This document shows, piece after piece, positions 3,000-64,000 of a DNA stretch of 64,000 nt. Each line of letters opens with the position of its first letter. Position 1 is the stretch's first letter. The stretch is from a virus. The notes under the pieces were generated by a model. That model worked only from the letters and a program-made list of their open reading frames with translations, was not told the origin of the DNA and did no database searches. The stretch lies in the IMG/VR virus record IMGVR_UViG_3300036770_004568, positions 18,611 through 82,610 of that record; one strand, given 5' to 3'. A program made the translations under genes and the position numbers.

Positions 3000-3975
3000 T
3001 TGAATCTATGAAAACTTGCAAGTGCTGCAAGCAGGAGCTTCCGCTAAGTTCTTTTTATGAGCATAGTGGATGTCGTGATGGTTATCGTCCTGAATGTAAA
3101 CAGTGTACATGTAATAACCAAAAAAAGCATAGAGCTGCTAATACCGATAAGATTAAAGCAAGGCAAAAACGCTATCGATCAAATCTTCAAGAGAAGAATA
3201 AGACTTATCAGCACTCCGACCCGATTAGGTGTAGAGTGTGCAAAGAGGTGAAGCCTCCTTCAGAGTTTCATAATAACAAATCACGTAAGACGGGAAAGAG
3301 TGATGTTTGTAAGTGTTGCTGCAGCATTTACCAAAAAGGCTATCGAGCGAACAATAAAGAGAAAATACGCATCTCTTGGAAAAGATGGTATGAATCAAAC
3401 AAGGAGCGAGTAATTACTCAGCATCGAGAGTATTACGCGGCTAATCCTGAGAAGAGACGTACATACATGCAGCAATATCAACGTAAACATCGCACAAGAA
3501 TTCTAGCCCTTCGTCGTCAGTGGCGACAAAAGAACCCGGACAAGATAAGTGCTTCCACGAAATCAAGGCGTTATCAGTCTGATCTCATGGTAAAGTCTCT
3601 TACTCCATCTGAAGTATCTGCGCGAAATAGGATTTATCTTTTTCGAGACTTCCTGAACCTGCTCTTTCCATTAACTGGCTATCTGTTCCATGTTGATCAC
3701 ATTGTACCACTCGCTCGCGGTGGGACTGAACACCCTGATAATTTGCAAATACTGCGTGACAAAGAAAACCTATCAAAGGGATGCAAGCTTGCCCACGAGG
3801 CTTCACTAAAGCCCTTGCCAGTACCAGAATCATTTTCCGGACTCTTAACAATGAAGCTCTATTCTGATCTCAGTAAAGAAGTTGAAATTGTTGAGGTATA
3901 TCATCTTTGGATTCAGCACATCAAGAAGTACTACGACGAGCACGAAATTCCCGACCAGGATCATCCTGAAGAGGT
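2869..3975 (+). repeat. direct repeat of ~55 nt (2869-2923 and 3921-3975) flanking the HNH ORF
   Basis: tcaagaagtactacgacgagcacgaaattcc(t/c)gaccaggatca(c/t)cctgaaga occurs twice. Confidence 0.9.
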
Positions 3976-4051
3976 GGTGGCGACGCAAGACGTAGTTGTT
4001 AACCAAACGGTAACCGTCGATACCGTGACCGTCGAGACCCTGGTGGCTTAG
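3008..4051 (+). CDS. HNH homing endonuclease fused to a copy of the exonuclease C-terminus
   Basis: Repeated CxxC zinc ribbons; HVDHIVPLARGG..HPDNLQIL...NLSKG; last ~48 aa repeat the end of the upstream exonuclease. Confidence 0.85.
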   Translation: MKTCKCCKQELPLSSFYEHSGCRDGYRPECKQCTCNNQKKHRAANTDKIKARQKRYRSNLQEKNKTYQHSDPIRCRVCKEVKPPSEFHNNKSRKTGKSDVCKCCCSIYQKGYRANNKEKIRISWKRWYESNKERVITQHREYYAANPEKRRTYMQQYQRKHRTRILALRRQWRQKNPDKISASTKSRRYQSDLMVKSLTPSEVSARNRIYLFRDFLNLLFPLTGYLFHVDHIVPLARGGTEHPDNLQILRDKENLSKGCKLAHEASLKPLPVPESFSGLLTMKLYSDLSKEVEIVEVYHLWIQHIKKYYDEHEIPDQDHPEEVVATQDVVVNQTVTVDTVTVETLVA

Positions 4052-4277
4052 CGCATGCAGCCAGAAACTGACGAATTCTGAGAAGAGGAAACGTCCTGTC
4101 GCAGTTGCCTGTACTGCATCTATGCGAGACCTGCATAGTTGAGGACTGTAAACTTTCAATGAGGCGACCCTAAAAGCAACATTAAGCCTCTTGGGATCAG
4201 TAGACTCTTGCTGATCCCGACCACTGCGCTACTACCTGTAGTCGCGTAGGGGAAGGCAATACCACCGCCCAAGGCAC

Positions 4278-4625
4278 ATGCCGTCAGAAGGACCGAGGAC
4301 CACCACTGTTCCAGACAACACCCGTACTGGTCAACTGTCGATTCTATCCGAATCGATACGGACCATTCTCAACACGTCGTACTTGATGTCTGTTGAGAAC
4401 AATACGTTATACTTCTGTCATTCCAGTAAGGAGAAGATGCATTGGCTTGTCAATGATCTGACTTCTTCACTGATTTTTAGTCATGCCAAGCAATTGGGAT
4501 GTGACTACGTTCACTTCCATTACTATGGCAAGGTGTCTGTGTCCGGTGGTTTAACTTACATCCGTAATAGCATTGCGAATCATGCAAAGAAGTTGCGTGA
4601 GAAAGAATTCACGTTGACAATTTAG
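4278..4625 (+). CDS. hypothetical protein
   Basis: 115 aa ORF, convergent with the next gene. Confidence 0.5.
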   Translation: MPSEGPRTTTVPDNTRTGQLSILSESIRTILNTSYLMSVENNTLYFCHSSKEKMHWLVNDLTSSLIFSHAKQLGCDYVHFHYYGKVSVSGGLTYIRNSIANHAKKLREKEFTLTI

Positions 4626-5347
4626 ACGGTCGAAAGACCATTGCCTTCTTCTGACTTTCCGTTCTCTGCCGTTGGTTCCGTATTGGAGCCAGCGGCATTT
4701 TCTTCGGCTTCACTCAATTCCAGTTTGCTTTGCAGTTCATCAATGTCACAACGCAACAGAGAAGCCAGTCGCACCAGGAAGTTGAAGTCGGGTTTGATGC
4801 CCTGGTGTAGTGAAATGATTTCTGGTTCACCGATGCCGTAACTCTCTAGCAGGGAGATCCACTGGGCTGGTGTGTTCACCCTGGAGCGTTCAGCTTCAAT
4901 CATGTCAACAATGGATTGATTGGCTGATGTTTCTTCTGGTTCATCACTGGGTTGCAGTTTCAGCCTTTGAATCTCTTTGCGGATCAGGTCACTGACCAGG
5001 GAGAGTAGTGAGGAGAGCAGCTGGATATTGGTGATGCTGCGGATACTGCTCTCTAAATTGTAGAAACTCATGGACCGTTTCCAATGTCCATTGATGAGGT
5101 AGTGCAGCAAGTCATCAATGGGTACACCATAGAGGTGGGAAACACGCTGCATGGTTAGTGTACGGATAGAGAGGGGATGCACCTTCCCATAGACATAATC
5201 ACGGATGCAGGACTGTGATACACCCAGGTATTCCTGTCCTAGTCGTGCTTGACTAAGACGCCTGTAATCCATAATCTCCTTGATCACAACACTGAACCTT
5301 TTGCGGGCACCAGTGTTTAAGAGAACATCGTCTAGTTGGTTGGTCAC
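4622..5347 (-). CDS. putative XRE-type HTH transcriptional regulator
   Basis: 'RRLSQARLGQEYLGVSQSCIRDYVYGK' HTH; second HTH-like segment near the C-terminus; divergent from the primase gene. Confidence 0.65.
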   Translation of the reverse strand: MTNQLDDVLLNTGARKRFSVVIKEIMDYRRLSQARLGQEYLGVSQSCIRDYVYGKVHPLSIRTLTMQRVSHLYGVPIDDLLHYLINGHWKRSMSFYNLESSIRSITNIQLLSSLLSLVSDLIRKEIQRLKLQPSDEPEETSANQSIVDMIEAERSRVNTPAQWISLLESYGIGEPEIISLHQGIKPDFNFLVRLASLLRCDIDELQSKLELSEAEENAAGSNTEPTAENGKSEEGNGLSTV

Positions 5348-5486
5348 TGCTCTATACCGAGTGGCTGTAGAACTTCCAAGAGTCTAAGGGCTATCAGGAC
5401 GCAAGCGAGTCCAAACACTAGATCGCTTAACAATGCCCCCTTCCCGTTCACCACAAGTAGACTGGTACTTGACCTAGTGGCGTGGC

Positions 5487-8400
5487 ATGGAGAAGCGGGA
5501 GTCCCTAAAGAAAACCTTAAATCCTGGCGAGATCAAACTGGAGTGGATCCCCAAGAATTGGCCCCTGACCCCGTTGGGTGCCTACAAGAATGCCTATATC
5601 CAAGACTGGCAATCTAACCCGTTCTCTATTGAAGAAATTAGAACGGAAATTAGCCAAGGCCGATGTAAAGGTGTTGGCGTCTTGGGAGGTCCCTGCTTCA
5701 ACGAACGTTTTGGTTTGGTGTGGGTGGATGTCGATGGACAGTCGGTCCAGTCCAAGATTGAGGAGCTCTCACACCTTCCCTATGCGGAAGCACTGCCCGA
5801 TACCCTGACGATCTGCAGCGGTCGTGTGGGCCGTGAGCGCAGATTGTACAAGGTCTTGGCTGAGGACTTTGAGATCTTTGTTCGCAACAAATACTCTTGG
5901 CAGACCGATACCCCTGGTGAAAAACTAGAGATCCTCTGGTCCAACCTTCAAGGTGTGGTCATGGGACTGCATCCGGAGACCAGTGGCTTTTACACCCCTG
6001 ATGGTCTGGGCTTTGAGTGGGCCACGGATCTCCCACTGATTCCCAGTTGGCTCAAAGATGTCATCACCTCCAAGAATGCGCGGATGGGTGGTGCCGCCAA
6101 ACGGGTCACCCGTGTGGAAGGTCCTGGCTTTGCGTTCTCGCTGATTCAGGATTCCTCCAGAGATCGGGCCATGGCAGTCGAGGCCATGTGGTCGTTGCCG
6201 AGTGAGTTGGCGGATGACTATGACACCTGGATCATGGTTGGCCAGGCCTTGCATTCGGTTGATGATGAATTACTGGAGCAGTGGGATGCCTGGTCCCAGC
6301 AGTCAGAGAAGTATCAACCTGGTTTGTGCGAGCGCAAATGGGCGTCGTTCAATGCCGGATCGGGTGTGGGGCTGGGAACGCTCATTGAACTCAGCAAGAG
6401 AGTCTCCAATGTCGTCTATGAGCGACTGGAGCGTGAGAATGCATCACTGCCTGAAGATGATGACCTCGATCAAATCGAGAAGATTCGTCTTGAGCAGATG
6501 ATGATGCTTGAAGGTGTGGTGGAGCAAACCATTGAGAACACCACTGAACTGCATCACATCCATGAGGTGCTAGAAGAAGTTGTGGATGTGGTCAATGACT
6601 TTGCTGGTCAAAACCTTGTTGTTGATGAGTCATCGCTCGATACGGATAGTCCTGAACCCTCACTACCATCGCTGAAGAGAAATCCTCCCGTCAACATCAT
6701 GCGGGACATGATTCTTTTCAAGATGGCTGGGAGTATTCTCTATGATCCAACACAGGAGTCCTATTACAGATACAGCCATAGATCAGAAGGCGTGTGGGGC
6801 AAGCTATCAAGTTTTGAAATGAACTCCATCATCCAGAACTACCTGGATGAAATGCACCTGCCCAAAGGCTATTCATCAGGGACGGTTCAATCACTGATGG
6901 ATCTCCTCGGACCACGGCTGGGTCAGGTGGAGTGGAACAACAAGCCCAACTTGCTGTGCTTCAAGAATGGGGTTCTTGATACCGAGACCATGACCCTGAT
7001 GCCCCACAGCAGGGACTTCTACATGGTCACCCAATTGCCATTTGACTACGACCCTTCTGCAGATTGTCCCCGTACCAAGCAGTGGATTGCCTATACCCAA
7101 TTCAACAATGAGGAGATGGTCAAGGTGCTGCAGGCCTGGTTGCGTGCGGTGCTGCTGGGACGCCATCAACTGCAGATGTTCCTGGAATTGATTGGTGCTG
7201 CCGGTGCTGGTAAAGCTCAGCCCAATGACGCTCGTATCTTGACGCCCGATGGATGGCGCCATTTGGATTCCATCAAGGTCGGTGATCATGTGATTGCCGC
7301 TGATGGCAATCCATCGTTGGTCATGGGGATCTATCCGCAAGGACGCAAGGAGATCTTTTCTGTTGTCTTTGATGATGGCAGTGTGGCTGAGTGCTGCAAT
7401 GAGCACCTCTGGCAGATCTACATCGGTGACAATCGCAACCACTACATCTGGACACTGGGGCAGATCCAGGAGTACCTCAAGAAATGTCCTGATGCACGGA
7501 TCTCAATTCCTCTCTGTCAGCCAGTGCAGTTCCCTGTGCAGCAGATCCAGGCGGAACCCTACGCCTATGCACGGGAAGTCATTGATTTGATGAACAGTGG
7601 ATCGGAGTCCAACAAGATTCACTGTATCCCGATTCAGTACAGACTGAATACCATCTCTGTTCGTCTGCATTTCCTGCAGGGTCTGATGGACCTAGCCGGT
7701 AGCACCAGGGAGGATGGGATGTGTGTGTTTGAGTGCAAGGAAGAGTACTTTGCTTCGGACCTGGCTTCGATCATCCGTAGCCTGGGAGGTAAAGTTTGGG
7801 TGCGTCCGCAGAAATCCAGGTCCAAGAAAAACCCTGTTGTGACCTATCGGTTGGAGTTCTTCTTGCATCCGATGTTTGCCCCCTTCCGCCTCAACGATGA
7901 GAAGCTGGTGGAGTGGCGTAAGGCTTACAACGGCTTTGCCCACACCAAGGTGATTGACAAGATCACGTTCTCTCGCTACTCAGAAGCGCGTTGCATCTAC
8001 ATCAACAACCCAGCTCACCTGTACATCACGGATCACTTCGTGGTGACGCACAATACTTCGTTCTCAAACCTGTGTGTGGCCCTGGTGGGAACTGAGAATA
8101 CCTTTAGCACCAGGCTCAGCCTGCTGGAGAGCAACCGCTTTGAGGTCAGTGGTGCCTATCAGAAGAAGCTGATTGTGATCGCCGACTCGGAGCGCTATGG
8201 CGGATCGGTGGATACGCTCAAGGCATTGACAGGTGGTGATCAGATTCGCTCGGAGCAAAAGTTCCAGCGTCAAGCCTCTTCGTTTGTGTACACAGGAATG
8301 TTGGTGCTCACGGCCAACGAGAGCTTGCAGACCACAGATCCCAGTTCCGGTCTGTTCCGGCGCCGCCTGACCGTTCCTTTCTCTCGCTCCAGGGCTGGGC

Positions 8401-59955: not shown

Positions 59956-62900
59956 TCAAGAAAGAACCCGGCCGTCCTTGACAAAGCTATACGCACAGGT
60001 GATGAAATCCTTATTCAGGCATTCAAAACCGGCGTAAAGTTGCCAGATGAGAATAATCGCCCTGCTGAAGTCGTCATTATTATTGATGAGGACTTGAGCG
60101 TTCGGACCACCGATACCCACACCAATTGCCTGAGGACCAAAGAAGTAACCTTGGGCAACTTCCTCAGCGACGGCAGAACCAGACTCAAGCTTAGCTTGAA
60201 CAGTTTTAGTCGGGTAGTTTGTTGATTCGAAGAATTTGACGCCCTCAAAGATCACGCCAGTAGGCATAACGGGTTCACCAGCCAGGAAATAAGCCTGACC
60301 AGCTTGAGGACCCATGTAGAATGAAGCGTTATTGGGCATTGCAGGGTTGCCCATATACATGCCCTGTCCAGGATTGCCAGCGTAGCGTGCAATCTCACGG
60401 AAGTCCGGATCCCTGCGGAGGTGCATCATGAAGGTGGGATCAACAATGGCCCGATACAGACCATCAGCATAAGTAGGCACATTGCGCTTACGCATCGACT
60501 TAACGATGTTCAGCAGGTCAGTGCGCACTTGGAATTGGTGCAGGCCAAGAGAAAAGGCAGCAGTTGCACCACCACTTCCGTAGTAGTCGAGGCTGGTCTC
60601 TTCTTTACCCATGGGGTAGTAGTAGCCACCTTGAGAATCGCCAGCAGGACCACGAGCGTGGGCTTTGGCTAGTTCATCAAGGAAAATACGATCCAAACAT
60701 GTTTCTCCAGGGCTTTTAACCCCTGGCTCTATAGCTTTACCATGGCTATAGTTCAGGCTATATCACGATCTAGATGGTCTAGATCCCCGGCACTCGTGGG
60801 AGAAGTGACTGACCGGACTGGTCTTGTCTCCTAGTCGTTGCACCTTCTAGTTAATTCCTTAACTAGCTTGGCTCAGGATTCCCCTTGGTTTGGCGGGGTT
60901 CCCTGAATTCACCGGGTTATTGCCCACTATTCACATAGTGGCGGCGCAATTGTATTTACGCCAGCGGCGATAGTCCGTGTATTCCGCTTAGGTTTCCCTA
61001 GGGACTGACTATATCTTCACCCTATGAATAGGGTGCAGGACGCTCATGCCTGTAATCAGGTAGTCGATGCACTGTCTAGAATCAGTGTTCTAGCTTAGCT
61101 CAGTGTTGCCATAGGTTTCGCCAAACCCTTAGGTTTCACTGAATTCATCCTGTTATTCACTAGACATTTACATGTCTAGGCGACAACTATTTTATCGAGC
61201 AGAGTGAGGCTACCGATGGACTGGTGAAACTGATTCAGGTTACCAGTATCGAGCAGCATCCGTTGCGCGGTGACTAGAGTCTCCCGAGCAATTTTGAAGC
61301 TTGAAGGCTGAGTCGGATCGGTCGGATCAGCAGGGCCGGTATCAATTGTGTTATCCCAAGGGTGTTGATCCCTTGGCTCTATGGTTTTACCATTACCATA
61401 GTTCAGACTATATCATCACCCGTCCCAGGGGGATTGGGTGCGAGGCACTCGTGACGCAATTGTGATTTCTCTGTTTTTATTTGAGTTATACAATCTGATC
61501 ACGTCAGACACTTTTTCTGTCCGACTTAAATCAGTCTTGTATTTGAGAGAAGGAAGTACATACTCATCAATGGAAGACAAAAGCATTTTAAGCTGTTTAG
61601 TATTCCACTTTAAATAGAACTTACCTGTTTTATGACAAACTTTTGTGTAAGTGGATCCTGTTAAATCATGGATCCATGAACCAACAATATCAGTTGTTGG
61701 TTCATCTTCACAAACAGCCAACCATCCCACTCTTTCAATCTTTACTGAACCACTCGGCTTAATTCTTTTGCGAACTTCCAGTGAACCATCATCCATCCAA
61801 AATAGAGCAAGCTCTTTAAGACCAAGATTCTGAAGAACTTCGACGCTAAGAGTCTTTTTGCCTTGTGGATACAGCAGGTTGTAAATGGGGGTTAAAAATT
61901 TCTTACTTGTTACACCAAAGCGCACAGCAGGGTAAATACCTTTGTCTTTGAAGTATTTCAATTGTGCGTGTGTACCCAAGATACTGTTTAACTGCTCTAG
62001 TTGCCATTGAGCGTACTCAACATGAGCATACTGACGCTGGATGTGCAGAGTCGTTGATTCAGATCTTTTTGATTTGGAAATACAACCATCTCCGATGGCA
62101 CATCCAATAAGAAATTTTTGCTGTTCAATGTTTATCATAAAACCATCTAGCGTTAGTCGTTGAACCTTCCGTGTCCTTAAAACGGCTTGGCTGCTGATTC
62201 CCCAATAGGATAGCAAAAAATCCTCTGGAGGGGTTCCAGCAATTCACCTCGTTATCGACGCAGATTACGCTGCGAAGGAGCTACCAATTAACTCTTTGAG
62301 CACCACCAGGACTTTCTCCTTGGTGATGTTACGGCTGCTAGCAGATCCAATGGTTTGATCAGGAAGACGCTCACGGCTTTCTTTAGTACCGGGCGAGCTC
62401 CAGAACTTATAGCGGTCAAGCTGCACTGTTTGGCCAGGCTGACGGGTGAAGTCGTGGACGACACTTGGTATTCCCGTCTGGCATTGATAAGCTGCTTAGA
62501 CGGTACTCACGGGTTTTCTATCCCCATGTCCAGACTATATCATATTCCCAGGACTGTTTCTGTTTCTCAAATCTTGCCTGATGAAGTTGAACACTACGCA
62601 TCAAGAATGTCGGACAAAGATGCGGCGATTGCTATTGGAATCTCTTATGTCTCTTTTTGGAAGTTAAGAAACAAATACAACATCAAATCTTTCTTTGAAA
62701 GAACAGGTCTCAGGAAGGACAAATCTACTGGAAAGCTTTTTCGTTTTTACCAATACAATGAGCGCTATTTCTCGTCAATTGATTCTACGGACAAAGCATA
62801 TTTCCTCGGACTACTAGCGTCTGATGGAAATATCTCCCCTCGTCTTACTGCTTGTCGGATTGCTCTTAAGCACTCAGACGCAGATATCCTTGATCACTTT

Positions 62901-63914
62901 AGGCTTTGCTTGGGAGCGGATTCTCCTCCCCTTAAGACTAAAGTGTCAAAAATCAATGGCGTTGAAAACGAGCCTCAAAAGGTATTGGTTCTAAGTCGAA
63001 CTTCTATGGTTAATGATCTAATCGAACTAGGGATAGTTCCAAATAAGTCAAAAACTCTAGAAATCAAATGTCCAAGCCTTAAAGACAATGAATTATGCAC
63101 TGCCTTTCTTCGAGGCGTTTGGGATGGAGACGGATCTATTACTCACCGACGTTTCAAAGTCGTTACTGCATCTGTTAAATTTGCATGTCAGCTCGACCAA
63201 ATGATTCATCAAGTGACTGGTATTCATTTGAAACCTTCTGTTCAACGTCCTAAATCAGGAAATCCGTTATTCGAATTCTCTGGTTATGTCAAAGATGCAG
63301 CTGTCCTGCATGCGCTATACAAAGATCCGTCACCAGCTCTTAAACGAAAGAAGCTTCAATACGAGTTGCACTGGGAATCTCGGCGCTAATTGTCCTCATC
63401 ATCTCATGGAGATGGTACGACATAGTCGTTGAACCTTCTATTGATCACTCAATAGCTTGGCTGCTGATTGCCCTAATCAAAATTCTGATGAGAGGGTTTC
63501 CAGCAATTCACCGAGTTTTCATTTCATGATTACTCATGAACGCGGCTGTCAATCAACCGGTTCCGTAGCCATTTCCGCGATGTACGCGGGGTGCTTTACT
63601 ACTACAGCTTTCACTGCCACTGACATCTTGCCATGTGTTTGTAGTCTGGCTGTTGATTGGATTTGTGGTACCAATCAAACCCTGTACCTTCTCCGGTTTC
63701 ATGATAGAAACTACGGAGCCTACCGTCCAGGCTCTACACCTTCCCGTTGACGGGCTTGGCTCGGTATTCCCCACCTCTAGGGGTTCACCGAATTTGGCAG
63801 GTATTACCCTACGACTTTCATCGTAGGCGCCCCACTCGTGAATTGTCGTGAGAGGGATTGACAATTCAATTAAGGCCGGTATAGTTCAGCTCCCAAAATC
63901 TTGGGAAAATCATT
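59956..63914 (-). CDS. major capsid protein, intron-split; exons 63914-63873, 63593-63556, 62463-62291, 61342-61194, 60975-60958, 60693-59956; first exon lies outside the window
   Basis: Joined exons (1158 nt) read without a stop: NDFPKILGAELYRP|HPAYIAEMATEPV|VVHDFTRQPGQTVQLDRYKF...VLKEY|TGPADP...LTLLD|DYRRWR|DRIFLDEL...; capsid identity from recalled family similarity, size and context. Confidence 0.8.
60694..60957 (-). ncRNA. group I intron 6 (264 nt, no ORF)
   Basis: 5' exon ends U (GGCGU pairs with GCGCC); core CAACGACTA and GATATAGCC; ends in G. Confidence 0.85.
60976..61193 (-). ncRNA. group I intron 5 (218 nt, no ORF)
   Basis: CGAU pairs with GUCG (P1); P10 AUAGUU/GACUAU; CATCGACTA and AAGATATAGTC; ends in G. 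Confidence 0.88.
61343..62290 (-). mobile_element. group I intron 4 (948 nt) with a sense LAGLIDADG ORF
   Basis: GAGU pairs with GCUC; AATTGCTGGAA, AATCAGCAG, CAACGACTA, GATATAGTC; splits the Tyr codon T|AT. Confidence 0.9.
61416..62138 (-). CDS. intron-encoded LAGLIDADG homing endonuclease
   Basis: FLIGCAIGDGCI and LALFWMDDGS; AT-rich; likely start ATG 62138. Confidence 0.88.
   Translation of the reverse strand: MINIEQQKFLIGCAIGDGCISKSKRSESTTLHIQRQYAHVEYAQWQLEQLNSILGTHAQLKYFKDKGIYPAVRFGVTSKKFLTPIYNLLYPQGKKTLSVEVLQNLGLKELALFWMDDGSLEVRKRIKPSGSVKIERVGWLAVCEDEPTTDIVGSWIHDLTGSTYTKVCHKTGKFYLKWNTKQLKMLLSSIDEYVLPSLKYKTDLSRTEKVSDVIRLYNSNKNREITIASRVPRTQSPWDG
62464..63555 (-). mobile_element. group I intron 3 (1092 nt) with an antisense LAGLIDADG ORF
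   Basis: CGGU pairs with GCCG; P10 GACA/UGUC; AATTGCTGGAA, AATCAGCAG, CAACGACTA, GATATAGTC; ends in G. Confidence 0.88.
62526..63389 (+). CDS. LAGLIDADG homing endonuclease with an N-terminal HTH, on the strand opposite its intron (start 62526 or 62608)
   Basis: KAYFLGLLASDGNI and AFLRGVWDGDGSI; N-terminal SDKDAAIAIGISYVSFWKLRNKY. Confidence 0.88.
   Translation: MSRLYHIPRTVSVSQILPDEVEHYASRMSDKDAAIAIGISYVSFWKLRNKYNIKSFFERTGLRKDKSTGKLFRFYQYNERYFSSIDSTDKAYFLGLLASDGNISPRLTACRIALKHSDADILDHFRLCLGADSPPLKTKVSKINGVENEPQKVLVLSRTSMVNDLIELGIVPNKSKTLEIKCPSLKDNELCTAFLRGVWDGDGSITHRRFKVVTASVKFACQLDQMIHQVTGIHLKPSVQRPKSGNPLFEFSGYVKDAAVLHALYKDPSPALKRKKLQYELHWESRR
63594..63872 (-). ncRNA. group I intron 2 (279 nt, no ORF, atypical P7)
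   Basis: GCCU pairs with GGGC; AAATTCGGTGAA, AATACCGAG, GTAGAGCCTG, AAGGTACAGG; ends AGTAAAG. Confidence 0.8.
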
Positions 63915-64000
63915 CATCATATCTCTAGTTACCTAGAGGACGGACTATCTCTTCACCCCTGTAGGGTGCCAGGCGCTTGTGACGATTGACTGATGAAGCC
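63915..64000 (-). ncRNA. 3' part of group I intron 1 (continues beyond the window)
   Basis: P8 caccctacaggggtg, AAGAGATAGTCC, P9 ctctaggtaactagag, terminal G before AAT GAT TTT. Confidence 0.8.

Follow-up and report, generated by a model that had tools for sequence, protein, structure and literature searches.

A probable mobile group I intron in a cyanophage capsid gene with its LAGLIDADG endonuclease gene on the opposite strand

In textbook phage and bacterial group I introns, the homing endonuclease gene runs in the sense direction, and the intron endonuclease genes of phage T4 likewise lie on the same strand as their introns. Here we describe an intron with the reverse arrangement in a 64,000-nucleotide (nt) stretch of viral DNA (hereafter, the window), which forms the final 64 kb of the 82.6-kb IMG/VR viral contig IMGVR_UViG_3300036770_004568. 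The sequence comparisons reported below make it probable that the major capsid gene of an S-EIV1-like cyanophage here harbours a mobile group I intron, with extra hairpins of the P7.1 type separating P7 from P3', and that the P8 loop of this intron is filled by a working antisense gene for a two-domain LAGLIDADG endonuclease. The antisense layout of intron endonuclease genes is a known, little-studied kind, to which the present phage case adds an example rather than a new kind.

Mycobacteriophage LittleE resembles the window in that its major capsid gene has a probable group I intron with a LAGLIDADG-type gene on the opposite strand. That intron is spliced, as judged by reverse transcription PCR, and the accessible text of the report places its LAGLIDADG-like gene 'on the bottom strand' (Pope et al. 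2013, PMC3706429). In the LittleE record (JF937101), gene 13 is joined from two pieces on the plus strand and gene 14 lies inside it on the minus strand. A sub-threshold match to the group I intron model RF00028 on the plus strand (30.7 bits, E = 2.3e-5) ends 3 nt from the stop end of the open reading frame (ORF), and gp14 passes PF14528 with 23.3 bits. The hosts and capsid families of the two phages differ, and so do the enzymes: gp14 is described as an I-CreI-like protein of 177 amino acids (aa) (PMC3706429), whereas the window enzyme has 287 aa, two motifs and a helix-turn-helix (HTH)-like head. No sequence similarity between the two proteins was detectable (BLASTP E ≥ 1), and the two loci appear to share an architecture of independent origin. 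In the accessible text, the LittleE orientation is mentioned in passing, without an analysis of conservation, selection or overlap (PMC3706429), whereas the layout of the window is kept in 11 distinct orthologues.

Further precedents are found in myxomycete nuclear rDNA, where the group I introns Dir.S956-2 and Dsq.L2066 carry antisense His-Cys box genes, for I-DirII and I-DsqI, respectively. According to the available portions of the reports, each of these genes is expressed from an RNA polymerase II promoter of its own, located on the strand opposite the host gene, and interference of the antisense RNA with the host transcript is acknowledged to be a problem (PMC3073962, PMC9548176). In the window, too, the endonuclease ORF lies opposite both the ribozyme and the host gene. 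However, the nuclear introns, as these texts describe them, are eukaryotic elements with an rRNA host gene, a P9.2 insertion (Dsq.L2066), poly(A) signals and spliceosomal introns, whereas the window intron belongs to a bacterial virus and a protein-coding host gene, holds a LAGLIDADG gene in P8, and has ORF ends that overlap the catalytic core. It works like the nuclear antisense group but is not a member of it, because the features that mark the nuclear type are missing.

The T4 introns encoding I-TevI, I-TevII and I-TevIII are, like the window intron, mobile group I introns with the endonuclease gene looped out of a peripheral helix. The T4 intron endonucleases are expressed under regulation separate from that of the host gene, and 'antisense' in the accessible text of that source refers solely to the free-standing segD gene and to promoters that might arrive with an invading endonuclease (PMC2988022). 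Cyanophage S-PM2 offers another parallel, as its intron-bearing gene and a homing endonuclease gene are tied by an antisense transcript. There, the endonuclease gene is presumably co-oriented with psbA. It lies outside the psbA group I intron, adjacent to it, and the antisense RNA, CfrI, is described as a non-coding RNA of ~225 nt (PMC2984593, citing Millard et al. 2010, as far as its text could be consulted), whereas in the window the antisense transcript would be the endonuclease mRNA itself. Word searches for antisense, opposite and orientation returned nothing from the available text of a 2014 review of bacterial group I introns (PMC3984707), a 2025 intron and endonuclease database paper (PMC11835236), a 2025 survey of Bastillevirinae phage introns (PMC11878797) and a paper on cyanobacterial rRNA introns (PMC1995217). 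Literature searches, which did not extend to subscription journals or supplementary files, returned no description of an intron from a cyanophage or S-EIV1-like phage whose endonuclease gene is antisense; other precedents may exist.

The named phage nearest to the window is Synechococcus phage S-EIV1, with 72% identity over the C-terminal 246 aa of the capsid protein. Its capsid gene is uninterrupted (L001:3569–4720, 383 aa). By laying the S-EIV1 protein on the contig with tblastn and reading the sequence directly, we resolved the window capsid gene into six minus-strand exons separated by five group I introns with RF00028 matches (Table 1). At the intron studied here, the 5' exon ends with GAACCGGU at 63556, the last base of the intron is a G at 62464, and the next exon begins with UGUCGUCCAC at 62463. 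With the intron removed, the exons read EPVVVHDF, matching the intronless S-EIV1 capsid.

A scan of IMG/VR with the window endonuclease as a single protein returned no relative. The same scan based on a protein alignment (A1) recovered 18 close-homologue loci (L008–L025), which represent 11 distinct sequences besides the window. In all 12 distinct sequences, the final U of the 5' exon is paired with a G of P1, and all 19 copies end the intron with G and restore the reading frame. RF00028 scores the orthologous introns of L009, L016, L010, L022 and L025 at 52.2–60 bits. An alignment of the 12 distinct sequences (A2) yielded a core structure that comprises 12 helices with 65 pairs in total and contains the P3/P7 pseudoknot. 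In this structure, 97.4% of cells are paired, compared with 34–47% in controls with partners slid by 1–3 columns, which favours it over those controls, although it was derived from the same sequences on which it was counted. Both sides have changed in 25 of the 65 pairs against a shuffle mean of 10.5, and none of 500 shuffles reached the observed values. The terminal hairpin (P9.1) was left out of the count because it is poorly aligned; P9 of the window is offset by two columns in A2 and was therefore read by eye.

P8, formed in the window by the arms attcccag (62544–62551) and ctgggaat (63371–63378), is kept in the 12 distinct sequences, with two of its seven pairs changed on both sides. The window itself shows compensatory changes in P8 and in P3, where CCCGG/CCGGG has become CUCGG/CCGAG. 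A nucleotide search of cultured phages with the intron yielded nothing beyond short matches to the core, ~100 nt long, in Alteromonas and Bacillus phages. We conclude from these alignments that 62464–63555 is a real group I intron, and splicing is predicted. An ORF-less intron of 288 nt occupies the same capsid site (residue 31|32) in a related contig (L192:3761–4048), and its P8 hairpin is closed by a 3-nt loop; the endonuclease gene of the window thus occupies precisely the P8 loop.

A single long ORF is contained in the intron. It lies on the plus strand, where its frame is open over 62355–63389 (344 codons) and offers ATG 62526, TTG 62574 and ATG 62607 as in-frame starts. Its product matches Pfam PF14528 LAGLIDADG_3 with 34.4 bits (cut-off 22.5, E = 2.6e-8) over the domain of motif 2, and PHROG 4645 'endonuclease' (E = 3.7e-39). 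A profile match to the archaeal V-ATPase intein endonuclease domains is weak (7qsu, E = 0.0017; by sequence), and precomputed HTH families are assigned to some distant relatives. Among the 23 sequences of A1, D100, G101 and D200–G203 are invariant. We take the acidic residue of each LAGLIDADG motif to be catalytic.

The endonuclease gene and the ribozyme core constrain each other's sequence. The last six codons of the gene, HWESRR, and its TAA stop (63369–63389) correspond in reverse complement to the P8 5' strand and P3', and the tail reads ESRR instead of EPRR because of the compensatory change in P3 of the window. If ATG 62526 is used, the 5' end of the gene is also antisense to the P8 3' strand, J8/7, P7' and part of P9, an overlap absent from an earlier note on this DNA that had been made from the sequence alone. 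What that note did propose agrees with the present comparison: its intron coordinates (62464–63555, 1092 nt) are exact when set against S-EIV1; the endonuclease gene is antisense to intron and capsid gene, with RF00028 on the minus and the ORF on the plus strand; the attcccag/ctgggaat stem that loops out the ORF is P8; both LAGLIDADG motifs have intact acidic residues, invariant in A1; and the ORF 3' end overlaps the core, being antisense to the P8 5' strand and P3'.

The backwards layout is shared by the relatives of the window. About 45 close metagenomic relatives of the endonuclease (48–59% identity) are mostly near 276 aa long (218–301 aa), and their C-terminus, ..YWEPRR, is almost invariant, which suggested the same overlap with the RNA core everywhere. 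In 18 of the 18 IMG/VR loci, RF00028 indeed matches the strand opposite the endonuclease ORF and begins a few bases inside the ORF 3' end; no RF00028 match was found on the ORF's own strand in these loci at E up to 0.01. All 18 introns occupy the identical capsid site, GA(A/G)CCGGT|TGT(C/T)GT, and measure 1107–1128 nt. This comparison across orthologous introns, which the earlier note had proposed, therefore returned the antisense orientation throughout.

Two sets of introns served as orientation controls. At least 597 stretches in IMG/VR match the capsid family, and the 80 most like the last exon of the window were taken. None of the 74 loci among them that reach the studied site has an intron there. 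Eight of the 80 have introns at other sites (after residue 48, near 90 and near 22), and in 8 of 8 the ORF of at least 100 aa in these introns, of a different LAGLIDADG type, is on the capsid (sense) strand. A 19-nt core motif common to many unrelated phage introns led to 79 further loci, and the J8/7–P7 motif could be located in 57; 42 of these introns are ORF-less, eight have a sense ORF of at least 120 aa, three are long without such an ORF, and four have an antisense ORF. All four antisense cases are contigs of the same capsid-intron family. Thus, the backwards layout is a property of the studied intron lineage and not of the gene or the phage. The generalization in the earlier note that intron endonuclease genes are nearly always co-oriented with their intron holds in both control sets, with sense ORFs in 8 of 8 and 8 of 8, but is limited by the antisense precedents in LittleE and in nuclear rDNA.

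The endonuclease protein is under purifying selection, as judged from substitution patterns. The ORF is intact in 19 of 19 copies, and dN/dS (Nei–Gojobori) is 0.06–0.28 in all pairs with unsaturated synonymous sites. Pairwise distances of ribozyme and endonuclease are strongly correlated (Mantel r = 0.93, with 0 of 5000 permutations as high), with lower values for ribozyme versus capsid (0.79) and endonuclease versus capsid (0.83). These correlations are consistent with one old insertion inherited as a unit, but are inflated by relatedness and do not amount to proof.

An inverted repeat of 8 nt, the P8 arms, flanks the ORF segment, and an assembly error could have inverted the segment between them. 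Public sequencing runs, available as Logan contigs of DNA, speak to this point. A single 1549-nt contig of run X2, possibly the source sample, covers 62355–63903 with both junctions and no mismatch, and contigs of run X4 cover 62581–63136 and 63337–63685, one of them crossing the 3' junction; no conclusion is drawn from the parts left uncovered in X4 or in runs X5 and X6. Among the joints listed for these runs, none is an inversion at the P8 arms. The same orientation recurs in 18 of 18 loci from other metagenomes, and the ORF tail is co-adapted to P3 and P8, the compensatory changes giving ESRR instead of EPRR. With the layout covered by independent contigs, we regard an assembly inversion as excluded. 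This was one of the counter-signs named in the earlier note; another, relaxed selection, is not seen either, given the low dN/dS values and the conservation of the window copy described below.

Several observations weigh against the interpretation of the window copy as a working gene in an intact intron. On the minus strand, RF00028 matches 63371–63565 with 49.2 bits (E = 9.9e-11), just short of the gathering score of 50; the 820-nt P8 insert interrupts the model after P3' and accounts for the shortfall. The window intron is also devoid of the P5 extension of ~47 nt (A2 columns 94–147; about 63470 in the window) that is common to all 11 orthologues. Its endonuclease is the most divergent copy, with synonymous sites saturated against all relatives (pS 0.74–0.86), so that dN/dS is not calculable for its branch. 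The canonical ATG, which directly follows P8 in the 11 orthologues, is replaced by AGG ACT, leaving the true start uncertain between ATG 62526, TTG 62574 and ATG 62607. Expression of the gene is predicted from selection, and a scan of 61200–64000 for sigma-70-like promoters gave five sites, compared with 4.7 expected, none of them upstream of the gene on the plus strand. As a separate observation, the P5 extension includes a hairpin with a GCGA-type loop and is present in the ORF-less L192 intron.

A recently lost start could still leave the frame looking intact, and the window gene might accordingly be freshly inactivated and heading for loss in the usual cycle of gain, decay and loss. The missing ATG would fit such a fate, as would the ORF-less versions of the intron, seen in L192 and in a 408-nt contig of run X2 that has only 159 letters between 62444 and 63423 and suggests an ORF-less form in the same environment. 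We nevertheless consider inactivation improbable, as the frame is open for 344 codons with three possible in-frame starts, in some homologues the gene call begins at the place of ATG 62607, and of 81 columns without variation among 21 close homologues, 77 are unchanged in the window copy and the other four differ only conservatively.

Distant relatives of the endonuclease (28–36% identity) were found inside a group I intron in 0 of 10 cases, and cultured phages have relatives of about 30% identity, annotated either as intron endonucleases or as free-standing ones. In one contig (L036), a distant relative (3001–3663) lies ~440 nt downstream of a strong ORF-less group I intron (2296–2562, 107 bits) on the same strand, an arrangement of intron and neighbouring endonuclease gene. 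Because the ten distant relatives lie outside group I introns, an ORF-less orthologue exists in L192, and the G+C content of the gene (0.41) is below that of the window (0.50), a free-standing origin suggests itself: an endonuclease gene with its own signals, from a mostly free-standing phage family, would have entered the P8 loop of an ORF-less capsid intron backwards, and intron and endonuclease would since then have been passed on and spread as a unit. The predicted targets of the enzyme are intron-less capsid alleles, cut around GA(A/G)CCnGTnGTnGTnCA, with candidate sequences compiled from 74 such alleles, and the cut would drive homing with co-conversion of the flanks. The junction reads CCG GT|T in 19 of 19 intron-bearing alleles, and the codon of that proline is CCG in 0 of 74 intron-less alleles, a restriction expected from P1 pairing and from co-conversion during homing.

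From about 44.8 kb to the end of the contig, the endonuclease gene is the sole plus-strand ORF of at least 130 aa that is not nested in a longer minus-strand ORF. As a lone, selected plus-strand gene in a long minus-strand block, it requires a plus-strand transcript and presumably, as the earlier note proposed, a promoter of its own. The enzyme would be made from a separate plus-strand transcript starting in the antisense of the ribozyme 3' domain or in the downstream exon, and in this way its expression would be uncoupled from the very strong late transcription of the capsid gene and the ribozyme kept clear of ribosomes. Because the ATG of the orthologues lies directly against the P8 3' strand, the loop has no room for signals, and the plus strand upstream is the antisense of J8/7, P7', P9 and L9. 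A box pair seen by eye upstream of ATG 62526 (TTGGTA-17-TAAGCT, 7/12) was rejected as too weak. Separately, the highest-scoring sigma-70-like sequence of the region (TTGACA, 16 nt, TATAGT; 11/12) lies at 63858–63885 on the plus strand, antisense to the first capsid exon/intron border, and points to the contig end.

A tentative possibility, which we hold to be rather unlikely, is that the core is used twice, with the antisense of the ribozyme 3' domain (L9, P9/P7', J8/7) acting as a sigma-70-type promoter for a leaderless or nearly leaderless mRNA that starts at the ATG abutting P8. In 8 of the 11 orthologues, the sequence TT[CTG]TCA, 17–18 nt, TATCTT (8–9/12 matches) ends 7–10 nt before this ATG, and no Shine–Dalgarno-like sequence precedes the ATG in the orthologues, as would fit a leaderless mRNA. 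A -35-like box (at least 4/6 matches, at that spacing) occurs in 4 of 4 family members, compared with 4 of 42 ORF-less introns with the core 19-mer. Yet three of these four ORF-less carriers, the ORF-less orthologue L192 and two introns at another site, belong to the same phage capsid group, so that shared ancestry of L9 explains the -35-like box equally well. The -10-like box is the antisense of the universal J8/7–P7 sequence, present in 57 of 57 surveyed introns; 7 of the 42 ORF-less introns reach 8/12 matches; and L016, L010 and L022 fail the promoter-box test. The window copy lacks the canonical ATG, and its promoter-like box is located downstream of ATG 62526. Moreover, the sigma-70 consensus may not be the promoter type of these phages.

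In line with a suggestion of the earlier note, the endonuclease mRNA might also serve as an antisense regulator of the capsid pre-mRNA, pairing with the intron and exon borders and so linking homing to splicing or capsid yield. The complementarity, complete by construction over 62526–63389 and including P3', P8, J8/7 and P7', would allow such pairing; in S-PM2 an antisense RNA, CfrI, links psbA with a homing endonuclease gene (PMC2984593, available text), and antisense interference is discussed as a hazard for the nuclear antisense endonuclease genes (PMC9548176, likewise). Against this, the capsid gene has no need of antisense control, as sense-endonuclease introns sit in the same gene, and the separation in time between an early enzyme and a late capsid would give no interaction; we judge such regulation quite unlikely. 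The two ideas can be joined, with one stretch of DNA serving as the ribozyme 3' domain (L9, P9, P7', J8/7, P8) on one strand and as promoter and start of a leaderless mRNA on the other, and with the gene tail antisense to P8 and P3'. The backwards layout would then be a product of selection: a weak promoter would supply the enzyme early, before the capsid gene becomes active, and pairing of the two RNAs after the onset of late transcription could tune splicing or capsid output. We regard this joint proposal as doubtful, somewhat less so than antisense control by itself, and prefer the plainer reading of a mobile intron with a working antisense endonuclease gene.

The remainder of the capsid gene is rich in introns. 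The adjoining intron (61343–62290) holds a sense LAGLIDADG_2 endonuclease ORF at 61416–62216 on the minus strand (Pfam E = 3.8e-18), and a similar sense ORF is found in introns at that same capsid site in L113, L138 and L141. A sixth group I-like element, represented by its 3' part only (63922–64000), ends just upstream of the capsid start codon and is truncated where the contig stops. In runs X2, X5 and X6 (window positions 60500–64000), DNA contigs from related phages join exons precisely across single introns, from 60693 to 60958 (264 nt skipped), from 61340 to 62291 or 62299, and from 60693 to 61209 via 33 letters encoding LTLLDDYRRWR; the presence or absence of individual capsid introns is thus polymorphic in nature. 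In L192 (IMGVR_UViG_3300001847_000509, 3677–7327), the capsid gene is in at least five pieces, with further gaps near residues 54, 88 and 145–169. The S-EIV1 GenBank record (KJ410740, 3494–4720) is misannotated in this region, with a 762-nt wrong-strand CDS and a 471-nt fragment in place of the single capsid ORF.

Table 1. Features of the capsid locus and the studied intron, in window coordinates.
Feature	Position	Strand	Basis or remark
Studied group I intron, 1092 nt, in the major capsid gene, after the second base of a Val codon in EPV|VVHDF	62464–63555	minus	RF00028; S-EIV1 and 18 orthologous introns
Ribozyme 5' domain: P1 3' strand, P2, P3, P4, P5, P6/P6a, P7 5' strand, P7.1 hairpins, P3'	63379–63555	minus	cmscan alignment
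P8 5' strand (AUUCCCAG)	63371–63378	minus	plus strand is part of ..W-E-S of the endonuclease tail
P8 3' strand (CUGGGAAU)	62544–62551	minus	
Ribozyme 3' domain: J8/7, P7 3' strand, P9, terminal hairpin, terminal G	62464–62543	minus	
Antisense homing endonuclease gene, 287 aa from ATG 62526; HTH-like N-terminal part and two LAGLIDADG domains	62526–63389	plus	
HTH-like N-terminal region (weak)	62589–62681	plus	Pfam HTH_23, E = 0.071, below cut-off
LAGLIDADG motif 1 (AYFLGLLASDGNIS), ..LLASDGN..	62796–62837	plus	A1 invariant columns, including D100 and G101
LAGLIDADG motif 2 (AFLRGVWDGDGSIT), ..VWDGDGS..	63102–63143	plus	A1 invariant columns G197, W199–G203
Candidate promoter-like antisense reading of the ribozyme, TTTTCT, 18 nt, TATCAT (8/12)	62514–62543	plus	read from sequence
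Capsid exon 1	about 63921–63873	minus	tblastn with S-EIV1 and reading
Capsid exon 2 (HPAYIAEMATEPV), upstream of the studied intron	63593–63556	minus	last bases CGGU pair with GCCG in P1
Capsid exon 3 (VVHDF...KE), downstream of the studied intron	62463–62291	minus	3' limit inferred from reading frame and intron-less allele
Capsid exon 4	61342–61194	minus	tblastn with S-EIV1 and reading
Capsid exon 5, 18 nt (DYRRWR)	60975–60958	minus	tblastn with S-EIV1 and reading
Capsid exon 6	60693–59956	minus	tblastn with S-EIV1 and reading
Capsid group I introns	63594–63872, 62464–63555, 61343–62290, 60976–61193, 60694–60957	minus	

The intron also bears on annotation, since gene callers would list the endonuclease ORF as an ordinary gene of the opposite strand and miss the split capsid gene, and the S-EIV1 record is already affected in this way. 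The case also shows that, within a large group of environmental phages, an endonuclease gene in reverse orientation can persist stably under selection and be widespread. The studied intron family provides a compact natural system for asking by what means a bacterial virus expresses such a gene, and whether the overlap of sense ribozyme and antisense gene has regulatory consequences.

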